IMG/VR virus record: IMGVR_UViG_2695420714_000020
Source of the DNA: a virus
Lineage: Duplodnaviria > Heunggongvirae > Uroviricota > Caudoviricetes
Strand: one strand, 5' to 3'
Length of the DNA stretch: 38,146 nt
The notes beneath the pieces were generated by a model that worked only from the letters and a program-made list of their open reading frames with translations, did not search any database and was not told where the DNA came from. How positions within the stretch are numbered: the first letter of the stretch is position 1; each line of letters starts with the position of its first letter. Of this stretch, positions 3,947 through 37,859 are shown one piece after another. Both the position numbers and the translations under genes were made by a program.

Positions 3947-4797
3947 GCACCATCCTGAAATGGGCAGGAAATAAAACCGCCATAATGTCCGAACTGAAAA
4001 AGCATCTTCCTGCTGGCCCGCGACTGGTTGAACCTTTCGCGGGTTCCTGTGCAGTGATGATGGAGACGGATTATCCCAGCTATCTTGTTGCGGATATTAA
4101 TCCTGATTTAATCAACCTCTATAAAAAGGTTGCTGCTGATTGTGAGGCGTTTATATCTCGTGCCAGAGCTTTATTTGAGGAAGCAAACAGGGAGGTGGCT
4201 TATTACAACATAAGGCAGGAGTTTAATTACTCCACTGAAATTACTGATTTCATGAAAGCGGTATATTTCCTGTATCTCAATCGTCACGGTTACCGTGGTT
4301 TATGTCGCTATAACAAGAGCGGGCATTTCAACATTCCCTACGGTAATTATAAAAATCCGTATTTCCCTGAAAAAGAAATTCGCGCATTTGCAGAGAAAGC
4401 CCAGCGGGCAACGTTTATCTGCGCCAGCTTTGATGAAACGCTGGCGATGTTGAAGGTGGGGGATGTGGTGTATTGCGATCCGCCTTATGACGGTACGTTT
4501 TCCGGCTATCACACTGATGGTTTCACTGAAGATGATCAGTATCACCTGGCATCCATTCTTGAACATCGGTCATCAGAAGGACATCCGGTCATTGTTTCTA
4601 ACAGTAACACGTCTTTGACCCGGTCCCTTTATCGTAATTTCACTCACCACTACATCAGGGCGAAACGCAGCATCGGCGTTGCAGCGGGGGAGGGAAAATT
4701 TGCAACAGAGATGATTGCCACTAAATCTGCTAATTGGTTTAGTGCCGATTTTAGTAGGGGACGTGACTCTACTGTTATTTTCGGGGTGCAAGTGTGA
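3943..4797 (+). CDS. dam: DNA N6-adenine methyltransferase (Dam/D12 class)
   Basis: Start [11 protein letters not shown] at ATG 3943 (in frame with ORF-track start 3883). Motif I PFAGSCAV and motif IV DPPY present. Confidence 0.85.
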
Positions 4798-4802
4798 AAG
4801 AA

Positions 4803-5624
4803 ATGCACCACGGAATTCATCATTTCCATGGGACGCCTGTCTGGGGAAGTGCTGGCGACGTTCATCGTATTGCGGTGAGCGGAGCTGGCGCTTTCGTCTC
4901 CTATGTACGGCCAGATCAGATTGCGGCGTCCATTCAGCACGCTCAGGTCGTCGGCATTGATAACGGCGCATTTTCTGCATGGGTGCGTGGGCTAAAAATT
5001 AACTGGAGTGATTTTTATAAATGGCTCCTGAACTATTACCACCATCCTAAGGTCGCTTTTTTTGTCATTCCTGATGTTGTGGACGGAGGTGAACGTGACA
5101 ATGATGCCCTGATAAACGAAGTTCCGAAAATGTTCTACGGGAAGGCAACTCCCGTCTGGCATCTGCACGAGTCAATCGATCGGCTTATCGAGCTATGTCG
5201 TGAATGGCCTCGTGTCTGCTTTGGATCTTCTGGTGAATATGCGGCTATCAGAACTGCGCACTGGCATCGTCGTATGCAGGACGCTTTTGAAGCAATTTAT
5301 TGCCGACACAATTTCAAAACAGCTGTTCATGGTTTGCGCATGCTTGACGGTCGTGTGTTGGGAAATTACCCACTGGCGACTGCCGACAGTACAAATCTTG
5401 CCTGCAATGTCCCCAAATTTAATAGCAAATATCCTGAGCTGACGCGGGCTATTCAGGAGGCTGAGTATTCGCGCAATCTGACGGAAAAGGAGCTGAAAGC
5501 TGTCATTCTGAAAAACCGTTGCGCAATTTTAAAAGGTGCAATTGAAGCTGTTCGCCCACCTTCAGTTTCTGATTGGCTGTCGAATGGTTTGCAGCCTTCA
5601 CAGCTCGAACTGGAGATTGCGTAA
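4803..5624 (+). CDS. Conserved hypothetical protein coupled to dam and gpA; possible TGT/DpdA-like fold (unverified)
   Basis: GTG 4794 overlaps the dam stop (GTGA); first ATG at 4803; its stop TAA overlaps the gpA ATG (TAATG). Motifs IDNGAF and [11 protein letters not shown] resemble, from memory, the DSGGF and FDE regions of tRNA-guanine transglycosylases; no zinc-binding Cys cluster. Confidence 0.5.
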
Positions 5625-7996
5625 TGAACTACAGCTATTCCTGGAATGCTGAGAAAAAAGCAATCAATCCTTACGTAGAGACAGAAGAGCAATCTTCAGT
5701 TTCTGCGCTTTCAAACCTGATCGCTCTGTACGCTGCCGATAACGAGCAGGAACAGCTGCGCCGCGAGGCACTGAGTGATCAGGTCTGGGAGCGTTATTTC
5801 TTTAATGAATCCCGTGATCCTGTCCAGCGCGAAATGGAGCAGGATAAGCTCATTAGTCGGGCAAAGCTGGCGCATGAGCAGCAGCGTTTTAATCCAGATA
5901 TGGTCATTCTGGCGGACGTCAATGCCCAGCCTTCCCATATCAGCAAGCCGCTGATGCAACGTATTGAATACTTCAGCAGCCTGGGCAGGCCAAAGGCTTA
6001 TTCCCGCTATTTGCGTGAGACGATTAAGCCATGTCTGGAACGGCTGGAGCATGTACGCGACTGTCAGCTATCCACTTCTTTTCGCTTTATGGCAAGCCAT
6101 GAAGGGCTGGACGGCCTGCTGATCCTGCCTGAAATGAGTCAGGATCAGGTGAAACGCCTGTCCACCCTGGTAGCTGCGCATATGAGCATGTGCCTTGATG
6201 CAGCTTGTGGCGATTTGTATGTCACCGATGACGTTAAGCCAGAAGAAATCCGCAAAACATGGGAAAAGGTGGCAGCGGAAACCCTGCATCTGGATGTCAT
6301 CCCGCCTGCGTTTGAGCAACTCCGCCGGAAAAGAAACCGCCGTAAACCCGTGCCCTATGAACTCATTCCGGGTTCGCTGGCGCGTATGTTGTGCGCTGAC
6401 TGGTGGTACCGGAAATTATGGAAGATGCGTTGCGAATGGCGGGAAGAGCAGTTGCGTGCTGTCTGCCTGGTCAGCAAAAAAGCATCTCCCTATGTCAGCT
6501 ATGAAGCCGTGATGCATAAACGTGAGCAGCGCCGTAAGTCGCTGGAGTTTTTTCGTTCTCATGAACTGGTGAACGAAGACGGCGACACGCTGGACATGGA
6601 GGATGTGGTAAACGCCAGCAGCAGCAACCCTGCGCATCGCCGCAATGAGATGATGGCCTGTGTTAAAGGCCTGGAGCTTATCGCGGAAATGCGCGGTGAC
6701 TGCGCCGTTTTCTACACCATCACCTGTCCGTCACGTTTCCATTCCACGCTAAATAATGGCAGGCCCAACCCAACTTGGACAAATGCGACGGTAAGACAAA
6801 GCAGTGATTATCTGGTCGGCATGTTTGCTGCATTTCGTAAGGCGATGCACAAAGCCGGATTGCGGTGGTATGGCGTGCGGGTGGCTGAGCCGCATCATGA
6901 CGGTACAGTTCACTGGCACCTGTTGTGTTTTATGCGCAAAAAAGACCGCCGCGCCATCACTGCATTACTGCGTAAGTTTGCCATCCGTGAAGACCGCGAG
7001 GAACTGGGCAATAACACTGGGCCGCGCTTTAAGTCTGAGTTGATTAACCCGCGCAAAGGTACGCCAACAAGCTACATCGCGAAATACATCAGTAAGAACA
7101 TTGACGGGCGTGGTCTGGCTGGCGAGATCAGCAAGGAAACGGGGAAATCCCTGCGTGATAATGCTGAATACGTTAATGCCTGGGCGTCTCTGCATCGTGT
7201 TCAGCAATTCCGCTTCTTTGGCATTCCGGGGCGTCAGGCTTACCGTGAACTGCGATTGCTGGCTGGTCAGGCGGCAAGGCAACAGGGGGACAAAAAAGCA
7301 GGTGCGCGGGTACTGGATAACCCGCGCCTTGATGCCATCCTGGCTGCTGCTGATGCTGGTTGTTTTGCTACCTACATCATGAAGCAGGGCGGCGTACTGG
7401 TTCCCCGCAAATATCACCTCATCAGAACCGCTTATGAAATCAACGAAGAGCCGACCGCCTATGGCGATCACGGCATTCGTATTTATGGCATCTGGTCACC
7501 TATTGCAGAGGGCAAGATCTGCACTCATGCCGTGAAGTGGAAAATGGTTCGTAAGGCCGTTGATGTTCAGGAGGCGGCAGCCGACCAGGGCGCTTGCGCC
7601 CCTTGGACTCGTGGCAATAACTGTCCCCTTGCTGAAAATTTGAACCAACAGGAGAAAGATAAATCAGCTGATGGGGACCCCAGAACGGACATTACCAGCA
7701 TGGATGACAAGGAGTTGCACGATTACCTGCACAGTATGAACAAAAAAGAGCGCCGGGAACTGGCTGCAAGGGTACGCCTGGTGAAACCGAAACGGCGTAA
7801 AGACTACAAACAGCGAATTACAGACCATCAGAGACTGCAGCTCGTCTATGAGCTGAAGTCCAGAGGATTTGATGGTAGCGAGAAAGAGGTCGATTTACTC
7901 CTTCGCGGCGGCAGTATTCCGTCAGGAGCAGGCCTGCGTATCTTCTATCGGAACCAGCGTTTGCAAGAAGATGATCAGTGGCGGAACCTGTATTAA
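5624..7996 (+). CDS. A: Replication initiation endonuclease gpA (rolling-circle nickase)
   Basis: 790 aa from ATG 5624; P2 A-like size and position, with central region [11 protein letters not shown]...[12 protein letters not shown]. Start overlaps the stop of the upstream gene. Confidence 0.85.
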
Positions 7997-9070: not shown

Positions 9071-9937
9071 ATGCAAAGAATTATTCCTGATAAAAATTGG
9101 TGGGAAAAAGAGCGTATTAATCGTAAAGCATCATCAATATGCCCATATGCTAGTTCATACAGATGTCCTCGATACTATCAGAGTGTAGTTTTGCTCTCAA
9201 GCATCAATGTGATAGCTGGTATGGCAACTAGGAAAGAAAAAGAGTTGGGTGAATTTTGGGAAAGAACCACTTTCTCATCTTTATGTGATGAAGAAGTCCC
9301 TACAGTTACTACAAAAGAATATGGCGGCCTTGCATCAGTTAGTAATTTTTGCCCAGAAATATCATTTAGATATTTACACTACTACGCCGATTATATGTGT
9401 AAATATGTTGATGAGATAGATCAGGACACTGGCAGGCGTATTGCGGAAAAAGATAATTTAGAAAATGATTGGAAATATACATGGATGTCAGTCAATCCTA
9501 AATTTTATTTAGATTGCGATGTTTTTGAAAGTGTCAAAAATTTCAATGAAGAATTGGCTAGTGATTACTTAAAAAGATTGCACCCAAATATCGTTCAGCA
9601 AATAGATAGAATGAATAATTGCTTGGATAATAATGATCCGGCAGGTGCACTGCACGCAGCCTCTAATATTTTAGAAACTATGGCTAAGGAAATCACTCAA
9701 AACCCGAATGTGGCAAATGAGTCATTGGGTGGTTTTTTTAAACAGTTCGAAAAAATGTCAAAATTACCTAAGAATCTTATTGATGCTGTTAAAGATATTT
9801 ATGATTTACGCAACAAATTACCTACTGCTGGACACGGAAGCTTGAACAAGCCTGAATTGACTATGGTAGAAGCTATAACTATTGCGGCAATGACAAAGGC
9901 GATTTTAGAAATTGAATATCGAAGCAAAGCCATCTAA
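9071..9937 (+). CDS. Orphan accessory protein, 288 aa, unknown function
   Basis: AT-rich ORF in the accessory region after about 430 bp of AT-rich non-coding DNA containing the palindrome GATAAATTTTTATC. No motif recognised; weak ribosome-binding site. Confidence 0.55.
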   Translation: MQRIIPDKNWWEKERINRKASSICPYASSYRCPRYYQSVVLLSSINVIAGMATRKEKELGEFWERTTFSSLCDEEVPTVTTKEYGGLASVSNFCPEISFRYLHYYADYMCKYVDEIDQDTGRRIAEKDNLENDWKYTWMSVNPKFYLDCDVFESVKNFNEELASDYLKRLHPNIVQQIDRMNNCLDNNDPAGALHAASNILETMAKEITQNPNVANESLGGFFKQFEKMSKLPKNLIDAVKDIYDLRNKLPTAGHGSLNKPELTMVEAITIAAMTKAILEIEYRSKAI

Positions 9938-10186: not shown

Positions 10187-10840
10187 TCATTTCGATGATT
10201 GATCCAGATGTGTATATAACCATTGAAAGAGTTTTCTAATTTTTGTGATAGTATCTTTTAAATAATTTAAGGAGATTATTATATTATTTTCATTGTTTAA
10301 TGAAAGAGTAGGTGTTTTATCAATGATATTTTTTAAGGCTACAGCTGTGCTCATTTTTTTAATGTCTCCATTAGCATGAACTATGCAATTCCTTACTTTG
10401 TTAAACTCTGTCATGAATTGCCACTCTTGTGACAGGCCAAAGTTTATATCCATTAATTTTGTTAAATATCTTTTTGCTTTGTGGATGCCATCACCATTAA
10501 AATCGGTTACTGATATATTGGTGTTTACAATCCTTTGACATATATTGCAATAGTCGTTTAGGTTGTGCTCTAAGCATGAGTATAAAGATACCAAAGCAGA
10601 TTTATTAAAAATATTTGGTTGTATGTTAACTAAGAAATCATATTGCTCTGAATAATAGTCTTCTAAGTAATTAATATAATCGTCAGGAGCATTCTTTTTT
10701 TCATCTTCATATGCTTTTTTTAATTCCGCTAAGTTAACTCTGTTTTGGCCGCCTGCTCCTAGGATATATTTTTCGAAATCATCAATCTGCGCTTCAAGTG
10801 AATATCTTGATAGCTGTGCGAAAAGTTTGTATTTACTCAT
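10187..10840 (-). CDS. Accessory protein, 217 aa, with candidate HEPN motif (RNCIVH)
   Basis: AT-rich ORF convergent with 9071..9937. Residues 150-155 RNCIVH match the R-x4-6-H HEPN signature in its common RNxxxH form. Confidence 0.55.
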   Translation of the reverse strand: MSKYKLFAQLSRYSLEAQIDDFEKYILGAGGQNRVNLAELKKAYEDEKKNAPDDYINYLEDYYSEQYDFLVNIQPNIFNKSALVSLYSCLEHNLNDYCNICQRIVNTNISVTDFNGDGIHKAKRYLTKLMDINFGLSQEWQFMTEFNKVRNCIVHANGDIKKMSTAVALKNIIDKTPTLSLNNENNIIISLNYLKDTITKIRKLFQWLYTHLDQSSK

Positions 10841-11270: not shown

Positions 11271-12920
11271 ATGTTAGTCAAGAAAAATAAAAATTATAGT
11301 TTATATTTTTTAATTACAAATAATCAACAGATATCTGATTCTGGTAATTATATAAAAATAGTCCCATCAAGAAGCGATTGGAATGATTTTGGATATTTGA
11401 GTAGAGTCGAAATATCTATTTTTAATAAAAAAGAGTGTAAGGATATAATTTCACTGAATGGTTATATTGGTTTTTTGAATTCAGAGGAGGAACGAAATGG
11501 AAAAGCAGAACTGATAAGGCGAGTGAAGAAAAAGGAAGAATCTAATTTAAAGGATGAGGGGTTTAATGATTATTTTGTCATGCTTCAGGATATGAATAAT
11601 TATCGAAGACTAGTAAGATTTTTTGGGGTGAATGAATCCAAATATATATTAAATTTCATTAATGATGTTGTTTCTAAGAAAAGTGACGCTAGTGCAGAGA
11701 ATTTGAGGAAAAAAGCAATCTCTTCTGATATCTTTAATAAATCTTTCATTAGAGAGTCTGAGTCGTATTTTACTTTCAAAAATGCAGGAACAGTTCTTTC
11801 CGGTATTCAATATGAGGAGTTGGGTAATTTATCACAGCACATCAAGATTAGCTATTCGAATAAAGTTAATGAAGAAGATGTATCTTATGTTTTTAATTTT
11901 GATCACGAGCATGATTTACCAAAAAGAATTTCCATAATTATAGGCGAGAATGGTGTAGGAAAAAGCCAAACGCTTAGAGAAATCGCATTGGCTGCGATTA
12001 AAGGAAAGGATAATTTGGTGGCTGTAGTTGATTCTAACGGTGTGAGCATTGAAGAACGAATTCAAATTAGTAGGCTCATTGCTTTTTCTCCAACAAATGA
12101 AAGTAAGTGTTCATTTCCAACCGATAAAAGAATAAAATCATTGATATGGTACAAAAGATTGACTTTAAATCGTGAATCAAAATCCAAATTAAACTTGAAT
12201 GATTTAATAGTGCAACTAGCGAGGAGTAACGACGCTATCGGCTATAATCAAAGGTGGAATATATTTGTTGATGCACTGAGTGTTCTAAATAGTAACAACG
12301 ATTTAGTAATCAAATGTAGCGGTGAAAATTCACCATTTGTTAAATTAAATGAGCTTAATTCTCGAGGCGAAGAATCCAGACTATCATTATATTCTGAAAT
12401 TATTCTCTCTGGCGAGCCTTTGAGGCTTGTTGAAAATAAATGTTACCCTTTGAGTAGTGGGGAAATATCGTTTATTAAGTTTTGTGTACAAGTCTGTTTG
12501 TATATTGAGAATGGGACTCTTCTATTAATAGATGAGCCAGAAACACATCTCCATCCTTCATTTATTAATAAATTTATGGCATTGCTTGATAATTTATTAG
12601 AAAAGACAGGCTCTTCAGCTATCATAGCAACGCATTCGGTTTATCTTGTTCGGGAGGTTTTTAAGGAGCAAGTGACAATACTCAGAAGACGAGATGATGG
12701 GGTAATTGTTAGCGAAAAACCGAGATTGAGTACTTTTGGGGCGAATATAGGAAATATCTCATATTTTGTTTTCGGTGAGAGTGAACCAACTCAAATTTTA
12801 AATAAAGTAAAAAATAATATAATTGCAAAGAATATGTCTTGGGATGATGTTGAATCTAAATATAGCGAGGACTTATCACTTAATGTATTAACTGCGTTGA
12901 GAAATGAAATAGGTAATTGA
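11271..12920 (+). CDS. ABC-type ATPase with ~215-aa N-terminal extension (candidate defense ATPase, PtuA-like)
   Basis: 549 aa. Walker A GENGVGKS (aa 225-232), ABC signature LSSGE (394-398), Walker B LLLIDEPE (417-424), H-loop ATHS (453-456). N-terminal 215 aa have no recognisable motif. AT-rich. Confidence 0.7.
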   Translation: MLVKKNKNYSLYFLITNNQQISDSGNYIKIVPSRSDWNDFGYLSRVEISIFNKKECKDIISLNGYIGFLNSEEERNGKAELIRRVKKKEESNLKDEGFNDYFVMLQDMNNYRRLVRFFGVNESKYILNFINDVVSKKSDASAENLRKKAISSDIFNKSFIRESESYFTFKNAGTVLSGIQYEELGNLSQHIKISYSNKVNEEDVSYVFNFDHEHDLPKRISIIIGENGVGKSQTLREIALAAIKGKDNLVAVVDSNGVSIEERIQISRLIAFSPTNESKCSFPTDKRIKSLIWYKRLTLNRESKSKLNLNDLIVQLARSNDAIGYNQRWNIFVDALSVLNSNNDLVIKCSGENSPFVKLNELNSRGEESRLSLYSEIILSGEPLRLVENKCYPLSSGEISFIKFCVQVCLYIENGTLLLIDEPETHLHPSFINKFMALLDNLLEKTGSSAIIATHSVYLVREVFKEQVTILRRRDDGVIVSEKPRLSTFGANIGNISYFVFGESEPTQILNKVKNNIIAKNMSWDDVESKYSEDLSLNVLTALRNEIGN

Positions 12921-12921
12921 A

Positions 12922-13785
12922 ATGAATAAATTAAAAAGACCTGTTTTTAAAGATTATTCTGCATTTAAAAAACTATCTGCAAATAAGAGATTAAAACATC
13001 ATTCTGTTCTGAATGGACAGGATACATTTATACTTAATGCATATAGATCGTACATAAAGAATAAAGGATATCTTAATGTCAATTCTTGTGGCGTATTGAG
13101 TAACAATATTGCTGAAGCTTTGAAATATTATTATAACAATCCCGCAAAGTGTTTATCTATAATTGATGATATAAGAGCAGCTAATTCTAACTCTCTATGT
13201 CCAATGTGTGGTTCAATGCATAGCGGGACTTTGGATCATGTTTTACCCAAGGAAAACTATCCAGAATTTTCTTTATTCACTAAGAATTTGGTTCCTGCTT
13301 GCAAATGTAATACTTTCAAAAGTACTACTATAGCTAATTCTGCAGGCCATCGGATGCTGCATCCATATTTTGATAATATATTAAAACAAAGATTAATATG
13401 TGCTAATTTTTCTAAATTAGGGCGAACACCTACAATTGATGTAAAAATCATAATTGACCCAATGTCACCAGAATATAACAATGTTAAGTATCATCTTGAT
13501 AATGTTGTTATCAAGAATAATATTAAGGGGTATTTGTCTGAACAATGGGAGTCGTTTTACTTATATCCTGAGCTTGTTATTAGAGGACTGAATAAGAGTC
13601 TTTCTACTTATAGCGATGTATATGAGTTGTTGACTCGCGAGTTGTTGCTGTTGGATGAAAAACATAAAGGTAAAAATAATTGGAATTCGGTTTTTGTAGC
13701 TGGGTTAATTCGACCTGATGTGATTAGGTGGATACTCTGTGAATTACATTTAGGTAACAGAAGTCCAGACGGTCGTCTCATATGA
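12922..13785 (+). CDS. HNH-motif nuclease (candidate effector, PtuB-like)
   Basis: 287 aa. CPMCGSMHSGTLDHVLPKENYPEFSLFTKNLVPACKCN (CxxC...DH...N...CxC, aa 93-130). ATG is 1 nt after the ATPase stop, so the two genes are coupled. Confidence 0.65.
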   Translation: MNKLKRPVFKDYSAFKKLSANKRLKHHSVLNGQDTFILNAYRSYIKNKGYLNVNSCGVLSNNIAEALKYYYNNPAKCLSIIDDIRAANSNSLCPMCGSMHSGTLDHVLPKENYPEFSLFTKNLVPACKCNTFKSTTIANSAGHRMLHPYFDNILKQRLICANFSKLGRTPTIDVKIIIDPMSPEYNNVKYHLDNVVIKNNIKGYLSEQWESFYLYPELVIRGLNKSLSTYSDVYELLTRELLLLDEKHKGKNNWNSVFVAGLIRPDVIRWILCELHLGNRSPDGRLI

Positions 13786-21807: not shown

Positions 21808-22201
21808 AGCGGTGCCTTATGTCCGCAATAACCCGGAAAAACTGCATCTGTTTGTGGATAACGGTTCGCTGGTTGCCACGGGGGCCAGCTCCATGTCGTG
21901 GGAGTACCGTTACACCCTGAACGCGGTGATTGAGGATTTCAGCGGCGACCAGAATCTGTTGATGGCCCCGGTTTTACTGTGGCTGAGGGATAACCAGCCC
22001 GATGCCATCAATAACCCGGCGTTACGGGAAAAACAATTCACCTTTGAGGTGGATATTCTGCGCAACGATGTCTGTGATATCAGCTTGAACCTGCAACTGA
22101 CGGAACGTGTGCTGGTCAGCACTGACGGCAGTGTGTCGAGCGTTGAAGCTGTAGCGGAACCCGATGAACCTGAAGAAATGTGGACGGTGAAACGTGGCTG
22201 A
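21770..22201 (+). CDS. R: Tail completion protein gpR
   Basis: GTG 21770 after AGGAG ribosome-binding site; LHLFVDNGS...EKRYTLN...WLRDNQPD parallels P2 R. Confidence 0.8.
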   Translation: MNKPQSLRHALNKAVPYVRNNPEKLHLFVDNGSLVATGASSMSWEYRYTLNAVIEDFSGDQNLLMAPVLLWLRDNQPDAINNPALREKQFTFEVDILRNDVCDISLNLQLTERVLVSTDGSVSSVEAVAEPDEPEEMWTVKRG

Positions 22202-22646
22202 ACTGCAGAAAGTGGACGACTGGCTGAGTGCCTTGCTGGCGAATCTGGAACCAGCCGCCAGAAGCCGCATGATGCGCCAGCTGGCGCAGGAACTGCGCCG
22301 GACACAGCAGCAGAATATCAGGATGCAGCGCAACCCTGACGGCAGCAGCTATGAACCGCGACGGGTAACAGCACGAAGTAAAAAAGGGCGCATCAAACGT
22401 CAGATGTTTGCAAAGCTGCGCACCACAAAATACCTGAAAACCGCCGCCAGCGCGGATTCTGCCAGCGTACAGTTTGAAGGTAAGGTGCAGCGCATTGCCC
22501 GCGTTCATCATTACGGCCTGCGCGATCGCGTCAGTCCAAAGGGGGGAGTCATTAAGTATCCATCCCGAAAATTGCTGGGTTTAAATGAACATACTGAAAA
22601 TGAAGTAAGAGATTTACTTTTAAAGTATTTTTTGATGAAAAATTAG
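22194..22646 (+). CDS. S: Tail completion protein gpS
   Basis: 150 aa (GTG start overlapping the R stop); KRQMFAKLRTTKYLKT...HHYGLRDRVS parallels P2 S. Confidence 0.85.
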   Translation: MAELQKVDDWLSALLANLEPAARSRMMRQLAQELRRTQQQNIRMQRNPDGSSYEPRRVTARSKKGRIKRQMFAKLRTTKYLKTAASADSASVQFEGKVQRIARVHHYGLRDRVSPKGGVIKYPSRKLLGLNEHTENEVRDLLLKYFLMKN

Positions 22647-22651
22647 AATGT

Positions 22652-23221
22652 TTACGCACTTAATAAACTTAAATAACTTTTTATGCTTTGGCAAAAAGGG
22701 AAAAGGTCTATTTTAATTTTCCAGTTTTTTTTGTTTTGAACCCCAGAAGCAATAATAGAACCATCCCAATATTTTATTCCATTTTTGCCGGTCTTTTTTG
22801 TTAACTCAAAACTTAATGCGTGAATAATTTTATTGCAGCATTCGCGTATAGAACCTTTAACATGACCATCTATAACAAAAAGTATATTTTCATGTTCTTC
22901 AAATGCTTCTTTCTCAGGTGAGTAATCTGGGTTCCACTCATGTTCACTAGTGTCTTGGAGAATTCGTAGTTTTGTACAAAGGCTAATAAGATTGTTGCTA
23001 ATGGTATATTCCAACCATCCGTTGTACGATAACTCCTCCATTTCAAATTCAGTTACTATAGAATCATCATATACTTTCTGTGTGGAATATATACGCTGTA
23101 AATAAAATTCAGATGAACAGCATAATTGCTCAATTATTCTTGCGTGTTCTTCTATAGCGTAATAATCAATTGGATGGCTCATTCTTTTACCTTTCTTCGA
23201 TTGGAATTGTATTTGTGTCAT
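22652..23221 (-). CDS. Moron: orphan 189-aa protein on the opposite strand between gpS and gpV
   Basis: AT-rich ORF antiparallel to the late operon, filling the S-V junction that is contiguous in P2. Start codon sits inside the PV activator dyad; no motif recognised. Confidence 0.55.
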   Translation of the reverse strand: MTQIQFQSKKGKRMSHPIDYYAIEEHARIIEQLCCSSEFYLQRIYSTQKVYDDSIVTEFEMEELSYNGWLEYTISNNLISLCTKLRILQDTSEHEWNPDYSPEKEAFEEHENILFVIDGHVKGSIRECCNKIIHALSFELTKKTGKNGIKYWDGSIIASGVQNKKNWKIKIDLFPFCQSIKSYLSLLSA

Positions 23222-23231
23222 TTACCACACA
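23214..23231. promoter_or_regulatory. Late-promoter activator dyad TGT-N12-ACA upstream of gpV
   Basis: TGTGTCATTTACCACACA centred about 55 bp upstream of the V start, as for Ogr-dependent P2 late promoters. Confidence 0.5.
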
Positions 23232-23277
23232 AGGACGTATTGATGCCATAGATTCAAGGTCCGTGCAACCTAACCCT

Positions 23278-23856
23278 ATGAACGCACAACTAACCGAAAT
23301 CATGCGCCTTATCACCAACCTGATCCGCACTGGGGTAGTCACCGAAGTGGATCGGGAGAACTGGCTTTGCCGGGTGAAAACGGGCGAGCTTGAAACCAAC
23401 TGGATCAGCTGGCTGACGCTGCGTGCCGGAAATGCCCGGACATGGTGGCGACCATCGGAAGGTGAGCAGGTGGTGCTGCTGAGTCTGGGCGGCAATCTGG
23501 AGACTGCCTTTGCGCTGCCCGCTGTCTATTCGAATCAGTTCGCACCACCGTCGACGTCGGCGGACGCCTGCGTGACAGAACATCCTGACGGTGGCTGGTT
23601 TGAATACGAACCCGCCACCGGGCGCTGGTATGTCAGGGGCATCAAATCAATGGTCATTGAGGCCGCTGACAACATCACCCTGAAAACCAATGAGTTTGTA
23701 CTGGAGGCTGACCGCACGCGCATTAACAGCGAAGTGGTGATCAATGGTGGCGTTACCCAGGGCGGCGGAGCGATGAGTTCTAACGGGATCGTGGTTGATG
23801 CGCATCAGCATACTGGCGTCCTGAAAGGCGGCGACACAACCGGAGGCCCGGTATGA
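23278..23856 (+). CDS. V: Baseplate spike/assembly protein gpV
   Basis: Start MNAQLTEIM at ATG 23278; RTWWRPSEGEQVVLLSLGGNLETAFALP parallels P2 V. Confidence 0.85.
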   Translation: MNAQLTEIMRLITNLIRTGVVTEVDRENWLCRVKTGELETNWISWLTLRAGNARTWWRPSEGEQVVLLSLGGNLETAFALPAVYSNQFAPPSTSADACVTEHPDGGWFEYEPATGRWYVRGIKSMVIEAADNITLKTNEFVLEADRTRINSEVVINGGVTQGGGAMSSNGIVVDAHQHTGVLKGGDTTGGPV

Positions 23857-35526: not shown

Positions 35527-37212
35527 TTATCCTAATCCTGGCCATACCATGACGATGATTGTCCCTGCCAGCGTCAGCAGGACGTTGGCGATTGCGTAGG
35601 TGCCCGCATAGCCCAGCGCAGGGATGTTACTGCGAGCTGTATCACTGATGATCTCCATTGCCGGCGCGCAGGTGCGTGCGCCCATCATTGCGCCGAACAA
35701 CAGTGCGCGGTTCATTCGCAATACATAAGCACCGAACAAGAAACAGATAACCACGGGCACAAGACTGACAATTAATCCGGCAATCAACATCTGACCGCCA
35801 ATCGCGCCCAGGCCGTTATTAATACCGCTACCGGCGCTCAGACCAACGCCTGCCATAAACACCATCAAGCCGAACTCTTTCACCATGCTTAATGCACCTT
35901 GCGGAATGTAACCGAAGGTCGGGTGGTTAGCACGCATAAAGCCCAGCATAATTCCGGCGAATAACAACCCGGCAGCGTTCCCCATGCCGAAACTGAATGT
36001 GCTGAACTGGAAGGTGATCATCCCGATCATCAGCCCAATAACAAAGAAGGCGCAAAATGCCAGCAGGTCAGTGACCTGGCTGTGAATCGAGATAAAGCCG
36101 ATGCGATCGGCGATGGTTTTTACGCGACGGGCATCACCGCTGACTTGTAAAACGTCACCTTTGTTAAGCACGACGTTGTCATCTATCGGCATCTCAATCT
36201 GGCTACGAATGACGCGGTTAAGGAAGCAACCGTGATCGGTCAACTTCAGTTGTGCGAGACGTTTACCTACAGCGTTATGGTTTTTAACGACCACTTCTTC
36301 AGTGACGATACGCATGTCGAGAAGGTCACGATCGAAAACTTCTTTACCGTTACGGAAGCTGGGATCGAGTCGGGCATGGGCGTCGGGATAGCCTACCAAC
36401 GCTATTTCATCGCCCATTTGTAGCACGGCATCACCGTCTGGATTTGCCAGAATCCCGTTACGTCGAATACGTTCAATGTAGCAGCCGGTTTGTCGATAAA
36501 TACCCAGTTCACGCAGATTTTTGCCGTCGGTCCAGGCCACCAGCTCCGGGCCGACGCGATAGGCGCGGATCACCGGTAAATAAACCTTACGGTTGGCATC
36601 AGTGTCCAGGCCACGTTCGCGGGCGATTTGCTGGGCGCTGGTCTGTAAGTCCTGATGCTGCAATTTCGGCAAGTAACGCGCACCAACAATCAAACTCACC
36701 AGACCGATTAAATAGGTTAAGGCATATCCGAGGCTCAGATTATCCAGTGCCAGTGAGAGCTGCCTGCTTTCCATACCGGAATGACGCAGTGTATCGCCAG
36801 CACCGACCAGAACCGGTGTCGACGTCATAGAGCCTGCTAACATACCGGCCGTCAGGCCAATATCCCAGCCAAACAGCTTACCTAACCCTAAGGCGATCAC
36901 CAGCGCACTGCCAACCATCACCAGTGCTAACATTAGGTAATTTTTCCCATCGCGAAAAAAAATGGAAAAAAAGTTCGGTCCGGCTTCGACCCCGACGCAG
37001 AAAATAAACAGCATAAAGCCAAGATTAAGCGCATCGGTGTTAATGCTGAAATGTTGTTGGCCTAATAACAGCGATACGACTAAAACGCCAATGGAATTAC
37101 CCAGTTGGATCGAACCAAGTCGTAACTTTCCGAGACATAGCCCAAGCGCGAGGACCACAAATAATAACAGAATGTAATTCCCATTTAACAATTCGGCGAC
37201 GTTTATATTCAC
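35527..37212 (-). CDS. ybjL: Putative transport protein YbjL (two TrkA-C domains, aspartate:alanine exchanger-like)
   Basis: 561-aa polytopic membrane protein with central soluble region; recognised as E. coli YbjL by length and sequence. Confidence 0.85.
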
Positions 37213-37481
37213 GGAGGCTAACTTCTTGTTTACTAGTAAGCTGTTGAAAGAAATGGTAATTTACGATAATGTTTTTTACCAGAATTCAGGGCGCAGATTC
37301 ATTCAGCGCACCTAAACGATAGTAAAGTAACAATATATTTTACTAGTGTAATCACATTAGGTATCAACGGCTATATGAATTGCGTTGGCCTATATTAGCA
37401 TGGAATGCGAAGCGGCTTTATCTTACTGAACGCCACACTGGCGAAAAATGTGTTCGATAGACGCAGTGTCAGGAGGAACGA

Positions 37482-37859
37482 GTGAAACATAAACAACGTT
37501 GGGCGGGGGCAATCTGCTGTTTTGTCCTCTTCATTGTGGTGTGCCTTTTTCTGGCGACGCACATGAAAGGCGCTTTTCGGGCTGCCGGGCATCCTGAAAT
37601 CGGCTTGCTGTTTTTCATTCTTCCTGGAGCAGTTGCCAGTTTCTTTTCACAGCGTAGAGAAGTCCTGAAACCTCTATTTGGCGCAATGCTGGCGGCACCC
37701 TGTTCAATGCTTATTATGCGGCTGTTTTTTTCACCGACCCGCTCATTCTGGCAAGAGCTGGCATGGTTACTAAGCGCGGTGTTCTGGTGTGCGCTGGGGG
37801 CACTGTGTTTCTTATTTATCAGTAGTTTGTTTAAACCACAGCACAGAAAAAATCAGTAA
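37482..37859 (+). CDS. ybjM: Inner membrane protein YbjM
   Basis: 125 aa, four hydrophobic helices; position between ybjL and grxA as in E. coli. Confidence 0.8.
   Translation: MKHKQRWAGAICCFVLFIVVCLFLATHMKGAFRAAGHPEIGLLFFILPGAVASFFSQRREVLKPLFGAMLAAPCSMLIMRLFFSPTRSFWQELAWLLSAVFWCALGALCFLFISSLFKPQHRKNQ

Follow-up and report, generated by a model that had tools for sequence, protein, structure and literature searches.

The AT-rich gene that lies between the tail completion gene S and the baseplate gene V of a P2-like prophage, in the 38,146 nt stretch of DNA analysed here (the window), can with moderate confidence be regarded as a one-gene accessory module at orf30, a classical variable locus of P2-like phages. 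Defence is the best-supported function of this cargo gene, a candidate role to which we would give roughly even chances. About one in five of the sampled E. coli genomes contains a P2-like prophage, and several new defence systems have already come to light in the hotspots of such prophages.

In the ORF list of the window, the mechanically longest frame at this site occupies 22652–23221 on the minus strand and encodes 189 aa. A composition scan gave a GC content of about 32 % overall (0.27–0.35 across the ORF) against about 0.57 in both flanks, and Pfam matches confirmed the flanking genes as S and V (Table 1), which bears out the initial annotation of an AT-rich, opposite-strand ORF at the S–V junction. 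That annotation described the ORF as filling the junction; the ORF does lie there, but the AT-rich tract already begins within S, at about 22541. S and the cargo gene are convergent, with 5 nt separating their stop codons. Homologues of the cargo protein are about 176 aa long and align from an N-terminal MSHP that corresponds to an internal ATG at 23182, the RefSeq CDS of the cargo gene in prophage Cartapus and in its host LF82 is 531 nt (i.e. with the shorter start), and predicted Shine–Dalgarno pairing is stronger for ATG 23182 (−4.3 kcal/mol) than for ATG 23221 (−2.8 kcal/mol). On these comparisons the true start is probably, if not almost certainly, ATG 23182, and the cargo CDS (176 aa) therefore ends 31 nt before the TGT-N12-ACA dyad of the late promoter PV. 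The earlier placement of the start codon inside the PV dyad thus appears to be an artefact of taking the longest ORF.

Table 1. Features of the S–V region, with positions in the window
Feature	Position	Strand	Details
Tail completion/virion morphogenesis gene S	22194..22646	+	150 aa; Pfam PF05069 Phage_tail_S, E=6.8e-42
Alternative AT-rich 3' end of S (last ~35 codons)	22541..22646	+	Part of the swapped module; GC 0.31 versus 0.58 in the rest of S
Whole exchanged module (S tail, cargo gene and PV dyad)	~22541..23262		From alignment with 500465-1 and boundary analysis
Cargo gene, likeliest CDS	22652..23182	−	176 aa, 20.5 kDa, pI 5.25; R-E-x-C-N-K-I-I-H-A signature
13-codon 5' extension of the longest ORF	23183..23221	−	Probably untranslated 5' UTR/promoter; absent from homologues, weaker Shine–Dalgarno pairing
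Candidate −10 box TACAAT (5/6) for the cargo gene	23206..23211	−	Putative, from a relaxed scan; adjoins left dyad half, poor −35
TGT-N12-ACA dyad TGTGTCATTTACCACACA	23214..23231		Presumed Ogr-type activator site of late promoter PV; 46 nt upstream of V ATG
Baseplate spike gene V	23278..23856	+	192 aa; PF04717 Phage_base_V, E=6.2e-18, and PF18946 Apex

The assignment to the orf30 locus follows the layout of P2 itself, where the S–V interval of the record (NC_001895) contains a putative terminator of the O operon, Orf30 and the PV activator site. P2 Orf30 is a 261 aa protein encoded on the reverse strand and annotated as nonessential, and S and V are therefore not adjacent in P2, contrary to the initial annotation. 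In the window, S, the cargo gene, the dyad and V follow one another in the corresponding order, the cargo gene is on the minus strand and of low GC content (0.32 against 0.57), and it is dispensable and replaced by unrelated genes, as judged from the empty and alternative junctions described below. The proteins themselves differ: the cargo protein shows no meaningful homology to P2 Orf30 (BLASTP E=0.27), and homology to the FRG protein of SEN8 was not found.

Genes absent from P2 are very often located at the TO-region, the Z-region and orf30 in P2-like phages, and these three loci are predicted sites of horizontally acquired genes (PMC3091744); for the three variable regions, that paper cites earlier work by Nilsson and Haggard-Ljungquist. 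In phage R18C, a 741 bp ORF replaces orf30 (PMC6823313). The suggestion that the S–V junction is an additional insertion point, beyond old/tin and Z/fun, must accordingly be withdrawn, as it is already listed as the orf30 locus (PMC3091744; PMC6823313). More recent surveys include that of Rousset et al. (2022), in which the cos-proximal gpA–gpQ hotspot was analysed (PMC9122126), the iLund4u preprint, which reports hotspots at old/tin and Z/fun and a third near cI, and a 2026 NAR study that places hotspots 'within the tail genes' at coarse resolution only. With orf30 in the older literature and the recent hotspot surveys directed elsewhere, the S–V site is therefore known but neglected. To our knowledge, the S/V (orf30) junction was recognized some 20 years ago, and we know of no functionally characterized cargo from it. 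The locus itself is thus already known, and the module structure described here is a modest new descriptive point.

The flanking S/V sequences were matched in 1041 E. coli genomes, only 22 of which carry the cargo gene (22 of 5426 complete E. coli genomes, or 0.4 %, including the LF82 prophage Cartapus), and in all 22 carriers the gene is intact and at least 98.9 % identical. About 20 of an evenly spaced sample of 32 flank matches have an empty S–V junction, as do phages 500465-1 and 4LV2017 and many E. coli prophages, and at the occupied alternative junctions there is a single reverse-strand gene for a DUF6216, an FRG-domain or another unrelated protein, with a GC content of 0.30–0.38. The presence/absence polymorphism expected of an inserted gene in the initial annotation is thus evident, since close relatives are either empty at this site or carry unrelated reverse-strand genes. 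Nine cargoes were examined, including P2 Orf30; all are single, reverse-strand genes encoding 176–311 aa with a GC content of 0.30–0.38, and they are mutually unrelated save for one pair at 47 % identity. The FRG cargo matches the PADLOC candidate PDC-S15 (E=3e-31) and is the only catalogued defence candidate among the nine. In the BL21-derived E. coli T7Express_LysY (NZ_CP053597.1, 3549509–3551523), a P2-like prophage encodes a DUF6216 protein (268 aa) at the S–V site, with 59 nt of the annotated CDS shared with the end of S. Orthologues of the window gene occupy the same S–V site in the same orientation in prophages of Enterobacter (60 % identity) and Pantoea (51 % identity), so the cargo appears to have been long resident at this locus.

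What is exchanged at the junction is more than the cargo gene. When the window was aligned with the empty-site phage 500465-1, homology ceased some 35 codons short of the S stop codon and was regained about 15 nt before the V ATG, and the C-terminal S peptide of the window differs from the 500465-1 version. Comparison of module boundaries in the window and in loci L002, L003 and L038–L043 showed that each cargo variant is accompanied by its own divergent S C-terminal tail of 15–35 aa, with a GC content of 0.27–0.47 against 0.58 in the empty-site phage. Since every cargo comes with an S tail and a dyad of its own, the breakpoints of recombination are placed within S and within the PV promoter, and the exchanged unit is thus the S tail, the cargo and the PV dyad together (Table 1). 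This arrangement would be explained more readily by homologous recombination between P2-like phages than by the arrival of a cargo gene on its own. The probable source of the module is recombination with a second P2-like phage, with one crossover in the 3' part of S and the other in the stretch that separates the PV activator dyad from the start codon of V; the module would in this way have brought along its own S tail and dyad.

A regular expression search of the window found the dyad exactly where the initial annotation had placed it, and 10 of the 11 phages examined have a TGT-N12-ACA dyad at a distance of 45–48 nt before the V ATG. The same expression had no exact match upstream of P2 V (L004, 2199–2311), where the half-sites show N11 or N14 spacing at the place at which the P2 record annotates the activator site, with its centre some 55 nt ahead of the start of V transcription. 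That start, as annotated in P2, falls on the V ATG itself, which implies a leaderless V mRNA. At the place equivalent to the candidate −10 box of the window, the Enterobacter orthologue has TACAAT and the Pantoea orthologue TACAAC, both of which overlap the dyad half-site. A strict consensus scan of 22400–23400 found neither a minus-strand promoter nor a terminator. From this layout, late read-through from the O operon, together with an activator bound at the dyad, would be expected to antagonize transcription of the cargo gene in the lytic phase.

Information on expression is available from a study of the LF82 prophages with reanalysed stranded RNA-seq (PMC9928086), in which Table S1 gives values as log2(fpkm+5). 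The relevant gene, LF82_787 (CARTA_14 of prophage Cartapus, 2749580–2750149), is a copy of the cargo gene at 98.4 % amino acid identity, and the values given here are thus those of this copy, in a strain different from that of the window. In stationary LB, LF82_787 was near background (3.51 and 2.71), and values were 5.06 and 5.16 in condition B1, 5.89 and 5.97 in B6, 5.11 and 5.28 in MB1, and 4.57 and 4.38 in MB6, i.e. in macrophages 6 h post-infection (PMC9928086, Table S1). The late genes S, V, W and J were at about 2.3–3.3, with a floor of 2.32, and in the four conditions other than stationary LB the integrase was at 5.7–6.4 and CI at 8.0–9.3 (PMC9928086, Table S1). In four of the five conditions, LF82_787 therefore exceeded the flanking late genes some 4–8 fold, at a level similar to that of the integrase. 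As LF82_787 is on while S, V, W and J are silent, its transcription in the lysogen is therefore independent of the late operons, albeit at a low level, and since it is near background in stationary LB and about 4–8 fold higher elsewhere, its expression appears to depend on growth conditions. The leftward transcription in lysogens that the initial annotation predicted is thus borne out by the LF82 data (PMC9928086, Table S1). Its description of the gene as a lysogen-expressed moron holds in so far as this is an exchanged AT-rich cargo transcribed in the lysogen, but LF82_787 falls below the cut-off for morons used by the LF82 authors, which is five times the median in stationary LB (PMC9928086). 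Both published Cartapus morons map away from LF82_787 (PMC9928086); one of them, LF82_789, was considered as the cargo gene and ruled out, as it is located in the TO region. LF82_789 and LF82_788, which encodes a DUF4145 protein and adjoins the portal gene, both rise strongly in macrophages (PMC9928086, Table S1).

The TO-region hotspot of the window itself (from DinI/gpA to portal gene Q) encodes, at 11271–13785, a 549 aa AAA_21/AAA_15 ATPase followed directly by a 287 aa protein without a Pfam domain, a pair that looks like a candidate two-gene ATPase-plus-effector defence system. Two further ORFs of this region, at 9071–9937 (plus strand, 288 aa) and 10187–10840 (minus strand, 217 aa), have no Pfam match and may be further cargo. 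The right end of the window (35527–37859) is host DNA, with a YbjL-like Asp-Al_Ex/TrkA_C transporter gene and ybjM, and the integrase and CI repressor genes are at the left end (1–2022), which together give the approximate limits of the prophage.

The cargo protein belongs to a large family. It matches PHROG 18838, a family of unknown function, at E=3.7e-133; a word-indexed search recovered 12 clusters, and an exhaustive profile search recovered 522 representatives at 50 % identity (E<=1e-3), of which 144 had E<=1e-10. Nearly all of the 522 are single-domain proteins of 170–210 aa, and the taxa represented include marine Vibrionaceae, Pseudoalteromonas, Rhodobacterales, Rhizobium and cyanobacteria. 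A second profile search returned solely entries named 'hypothetical protein', without Pfam domains. The cargo protein has no match in Pfam, NCBIfam or PADLOC (PADLOC-DB v2.0.0), and 61 family members gave no Pfam match and only chance-level matches to PADLOC models. Four longer relatives (P0192, P0264, P0112 and P0117), scanned for fusions, contain no Pfam domains, sequence and profile searches of the PDB with the cargo family found nothing, and a Foldseek search of the model against the PDB and BFVD gave no match below E=0.1. The AlphaFold2 model of the cargo protein has a pLDDT of 89.6, and hydropathy analysis revealed no transmembrane segment, hydrophobic stretch or signal peptide; the product is therefore predicted to be a soluble cytoplasmic alpha+beta protein of a widespread unannotated family. 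Among 242 full-length members, N117 and H121 are invariant (100 %), and R73 (99 %), K118 (98 %), G147 (98 %), R113 (97 %), D77 (95 %), W154 (95 %), A122 (92 %), C116 (90 %) and W139 (90 %) are highly conserved. A catalytic Cys-His pair formed by C116 and H121 was considered and rejected, as some members have F, S or W instead of C116, and the two residues share one short helix.

Metal-independent phosphoester chemistry typically relies on a cluster of this kind, in which Arg, Asn, Lys and His are invariant and an acidic metal-binding set is lacking. HEPN proteins, which include the lactococcal single-protein Abi HEPNs as standalone abortive-infection proteins, have the consensus motif R-[N/H/D]-x-x-x-H. 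The cargo signature R113-E-x-C116-N117-K118-I-I-H121 has R-x7-H in place of the Rx4–6H of HEPN proteins; the position of the canonical HEPN Arg is Cys in 90 % of members, and only the N-x3-H part agrees. The segment C-N-K-I-I-H looks like a HEPN motif in which Arg has become Cys and which a conserved Arg precedes by one turn. Comparison of the cargo family with the PF05168 alignment by hhalign gave a probability of 1.3 % (two HEPN families compared) and with the N-domains of HEPN/Toprim proteins 0.05 %, and none of the 61 family members matched a HEPN-clan Pfam family. Membership of the HEPN superfamily is thus not supported by motif, Pfam or hhalign, and we therefore propose a functional analogy only. 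By that analogy, a HEPN-like nuclease mechanism for the cargo protein is a minority hypothesis, at present rather doubtful.

The genomic contexts of relatives were studied at 28 loci of homologues in reference genomes, obtained with a tighter family alignment as the query. Many of the homologue genes are AT-richer than their surroundings (e.g. 0.37 against 0.62 GC). In Vibrio mimicus, Aliivibrio, V. fujianensis and Pseudoalteromonas the homologues are single-gene integron cassettes bounded by VCR/attC-like repeats (TAACAAACGCCTCAAGAGGG...GGCGGGCGTTA). Three of these loci (L017, L005 and L009) are arrays of 10–13 VCR-like repeats in which the homologue fills one inter-repeat unit, at L007 a repeat pair brackets the homologue, and at L011 (Vibrio sp.) the repeat was seen on the upstream side only. 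Apart from L011, where one side only was seen, these homologues are thus single ORFs between attC-like repeats, and the window copy is in a prophage, outside an integron. Sedentary integron cassettes often encode defence systems, according to a recent preprint (bioRxiv 10.1101/2024.07.02.601686).

At five further loci (L018, L019, L021, L022 and L024, about 4150–6400), all alphaproteobacterial and of Rhodobacterales type, the homologue forms an operon with the genes for AbiEi (DUF6088/AbiEi_4) and AbiEii (PF08843) in which stop and start codons overlap, and members of this AbiE-linked subfamily have an N-terminal extension with an NPYW motif. The five AbiE loci share flanking genes and so may represent one evolutionary event. 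Other immediate neighbours are HEPN/Toprim proteins (two loci), a Lit-like U49 peptidase, an AAA_23/SMC ATPase and a GmrSD enzyme. In Brevundimonas the homologue is in an island with IS110, a ParB_N protein and a Pol-beta/HEPN fusion, and in Rhizobium (L047/L048, 3424–6917) it lies 3 nt after an integrase gene and before portal, head-tail adaptor and protease/capsid genes, an element that would appear to be compact and prophage-like or satellite-like. Several contexts were uninformative, and defence neighbours were present in about 10 of the approximately 35 contexts examined. The occurrence of the gene in cassettes, prophages and AbiE operons thus indicates that the family behaves like a self-sufficient, highly mobile one-gene module, with an enrichment in the vicinity of defence genes.

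Our current working hypothesis is that the cargo gene is dispensable for phage growth and opposed to late transcription, that it would be transcribed at a low level in the lysogen from its own weak promoter, and that its product may guard the lysogen against other phages or mobile elements; the family would move as a standalone gene, both among prophages and among integron cassette arrays. The cluster of R73, D77, R113, N117, K118 and H121 may bind and cleave a phosphoester substrate, most plausibly RNA, in an action akin to that of the metal-independent HEPN-type abortive-infection nucleases, and the protein would presumably be inactive until infection. The proximity of AbiE and other defence genes, the FRG/PDC-S15 cargo at the same site and the integron reservoirs make a defence role plausible. 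Counting against such a role are the lack of a PADLOC match and the limited number of contexts with defence neighbours (about 10 of about 35, with the AbiE loci perhaps a single event), the low expression, near background in stationary LB, with no consensus promoter or terminator, and the consideration that a standalone toxin without a visible antitoxin needs some way to stay inactive. A bolder proposal, which we consider possible but doubtful, is that the cargo gene founds a new single-protein, abortive-infection-type anti-phage family marked by R-E-x-C-N-K-I-I-H-A, a divergent HEPN-like nuclease with its catalytic Arg shifted by one helical turn, which serves as a plug-in module across P2-like hotspots, other prophages, integron arrays and AbiE operons. 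If this were true, P2-like phages would have a third genuine defence hotspot in the largely overlooked S/V (orf30) junction, and, since the modules carry their own PV activator site, expression of the cargo would be switched off as late transcription starts.

Other explanations of the cargo gene have to be weighed against defence. It is conceivable, although unlikely, that the gene is a fitness moron acting outside phage conflict, such as a modulator of stress, metabolism or virulence in the gut or inside host cells; LF82 is of the adherent-invasive pathotype, and expression in LF82 increases from stationary LB to the other conditions, including the interior of macrophages. A product without a signal peptide or transmembrane segment fits this poorly, as does a taxonomic range from marine Vibrionaceae to cyanobacteria, which argues against a niche-specific role, and the recurrent neighbours are defence or mobile-element genes, none of them metabolic. 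Rather improbable, too, is a part in counter-defence or in modulation between elements, in which the protein would bind or inactivate an immune component of the host or of a rival, for example of AbiE type, and so aid the phage or lysogen. The gene is indeed phage-borne accessory cargo, its product is small, single-domain and acidic, and the co-operonic arrangement with AbiEi/AbiEii in five loci, with overlapping codons, could reflect a regulator or modulator of AbiE. However, the gene is transcribed in the established lysogen, unlike early or late lytic genes, it is frequently a chromosomal integron cassette, where phage anti-defence would be of no obvious benefit to the host, and its invariant R/N/K/H cluster resembles an enzyme site more than a binding decoy.

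The constant position of the gene between S and V, its travelling with its own S C-terminal tail and PV dyad, and the overlap of its upstream region with the PV activator site might suggest an accessory role in the phage cycle, as a helper in tail assembly or a regulator of divergent PV, kept for the sake of S/V or Ogr. This we consider very unlikely, because the junction is empty in most close relatives, which are isolated, viable phages, at least nine unrelated proteins are encoded at the S–V site, homologues exist outside phages in integron cassettes and AbiE operons, and the cargo is expressed while the late genes are off. Most strongly disfavoured is a decaying or functionless AT-rich passenger that merely hitch-hikes: the gene is rare (0.4 % of E. 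coli genomes), its expression is low and its product has no annotated domain, but all 22 E. coli copies are intact, with an identity of at least 98.9 %, the family of 522 representatives has signature residues conserved at 95–100 %, the fold of the cargo protein is predicted with confidence, and the orthologues at 51–60 % identity retain both length and motif.

A role in defence thus remains the reading that we prefer. Should the cargo gene prove to be a defence gene, it would be a compact and easily testable new system and would justify systematic mining of the S–V junction, at which at least nine unrelated AT-rich, reverse-strand single genes occur, one of them matching a PADLOC candidate; if not, it would be an ordinary moron in a known variable locus.

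Among known systems, the P2 orf30 locus is the closest in arrangement: in both P2 and the window a single, dispensable, reverse-strand gene of similar GC content (0.34 in P2 orf30, 0.32 in the window cargo) lies between S and V and is bounded by the PV activator site. The encoded proteins are unrelated, however, and a terminator is annotated in P2, whereas none was recognized in the window. Like phage morons and the defence hotspots of P2-like phages (old, tin and Z/fun), the window gene is autonomous prophage cargo of low GC content at a site of high turnover, and the gpA–gpQ hotspot of Rousset et al. (PMC9122126) is a different site from the S–V junction. Compared with standalone HEPN RNases (HepT/DUF86 toxins such as SO_3166, the toxin of MNT-HEPN), the window family has its conserved Arg three residues earlier, and in the predicted model a three-stranded beta-meander follows the motif helix. 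In the type IV toxin–antitoxin system AbiE, a homologue is the third gene at five loci, whereas the window gene is solitary and without an AbiE partner. Finally, sedentary chromosomal integron cassettes, which are reported reservoirs of compact defence systems, are the home of the Vibrio, Aliivibrio and Pseudoalteromonas homologues, while the window copy is carried by a prophage.
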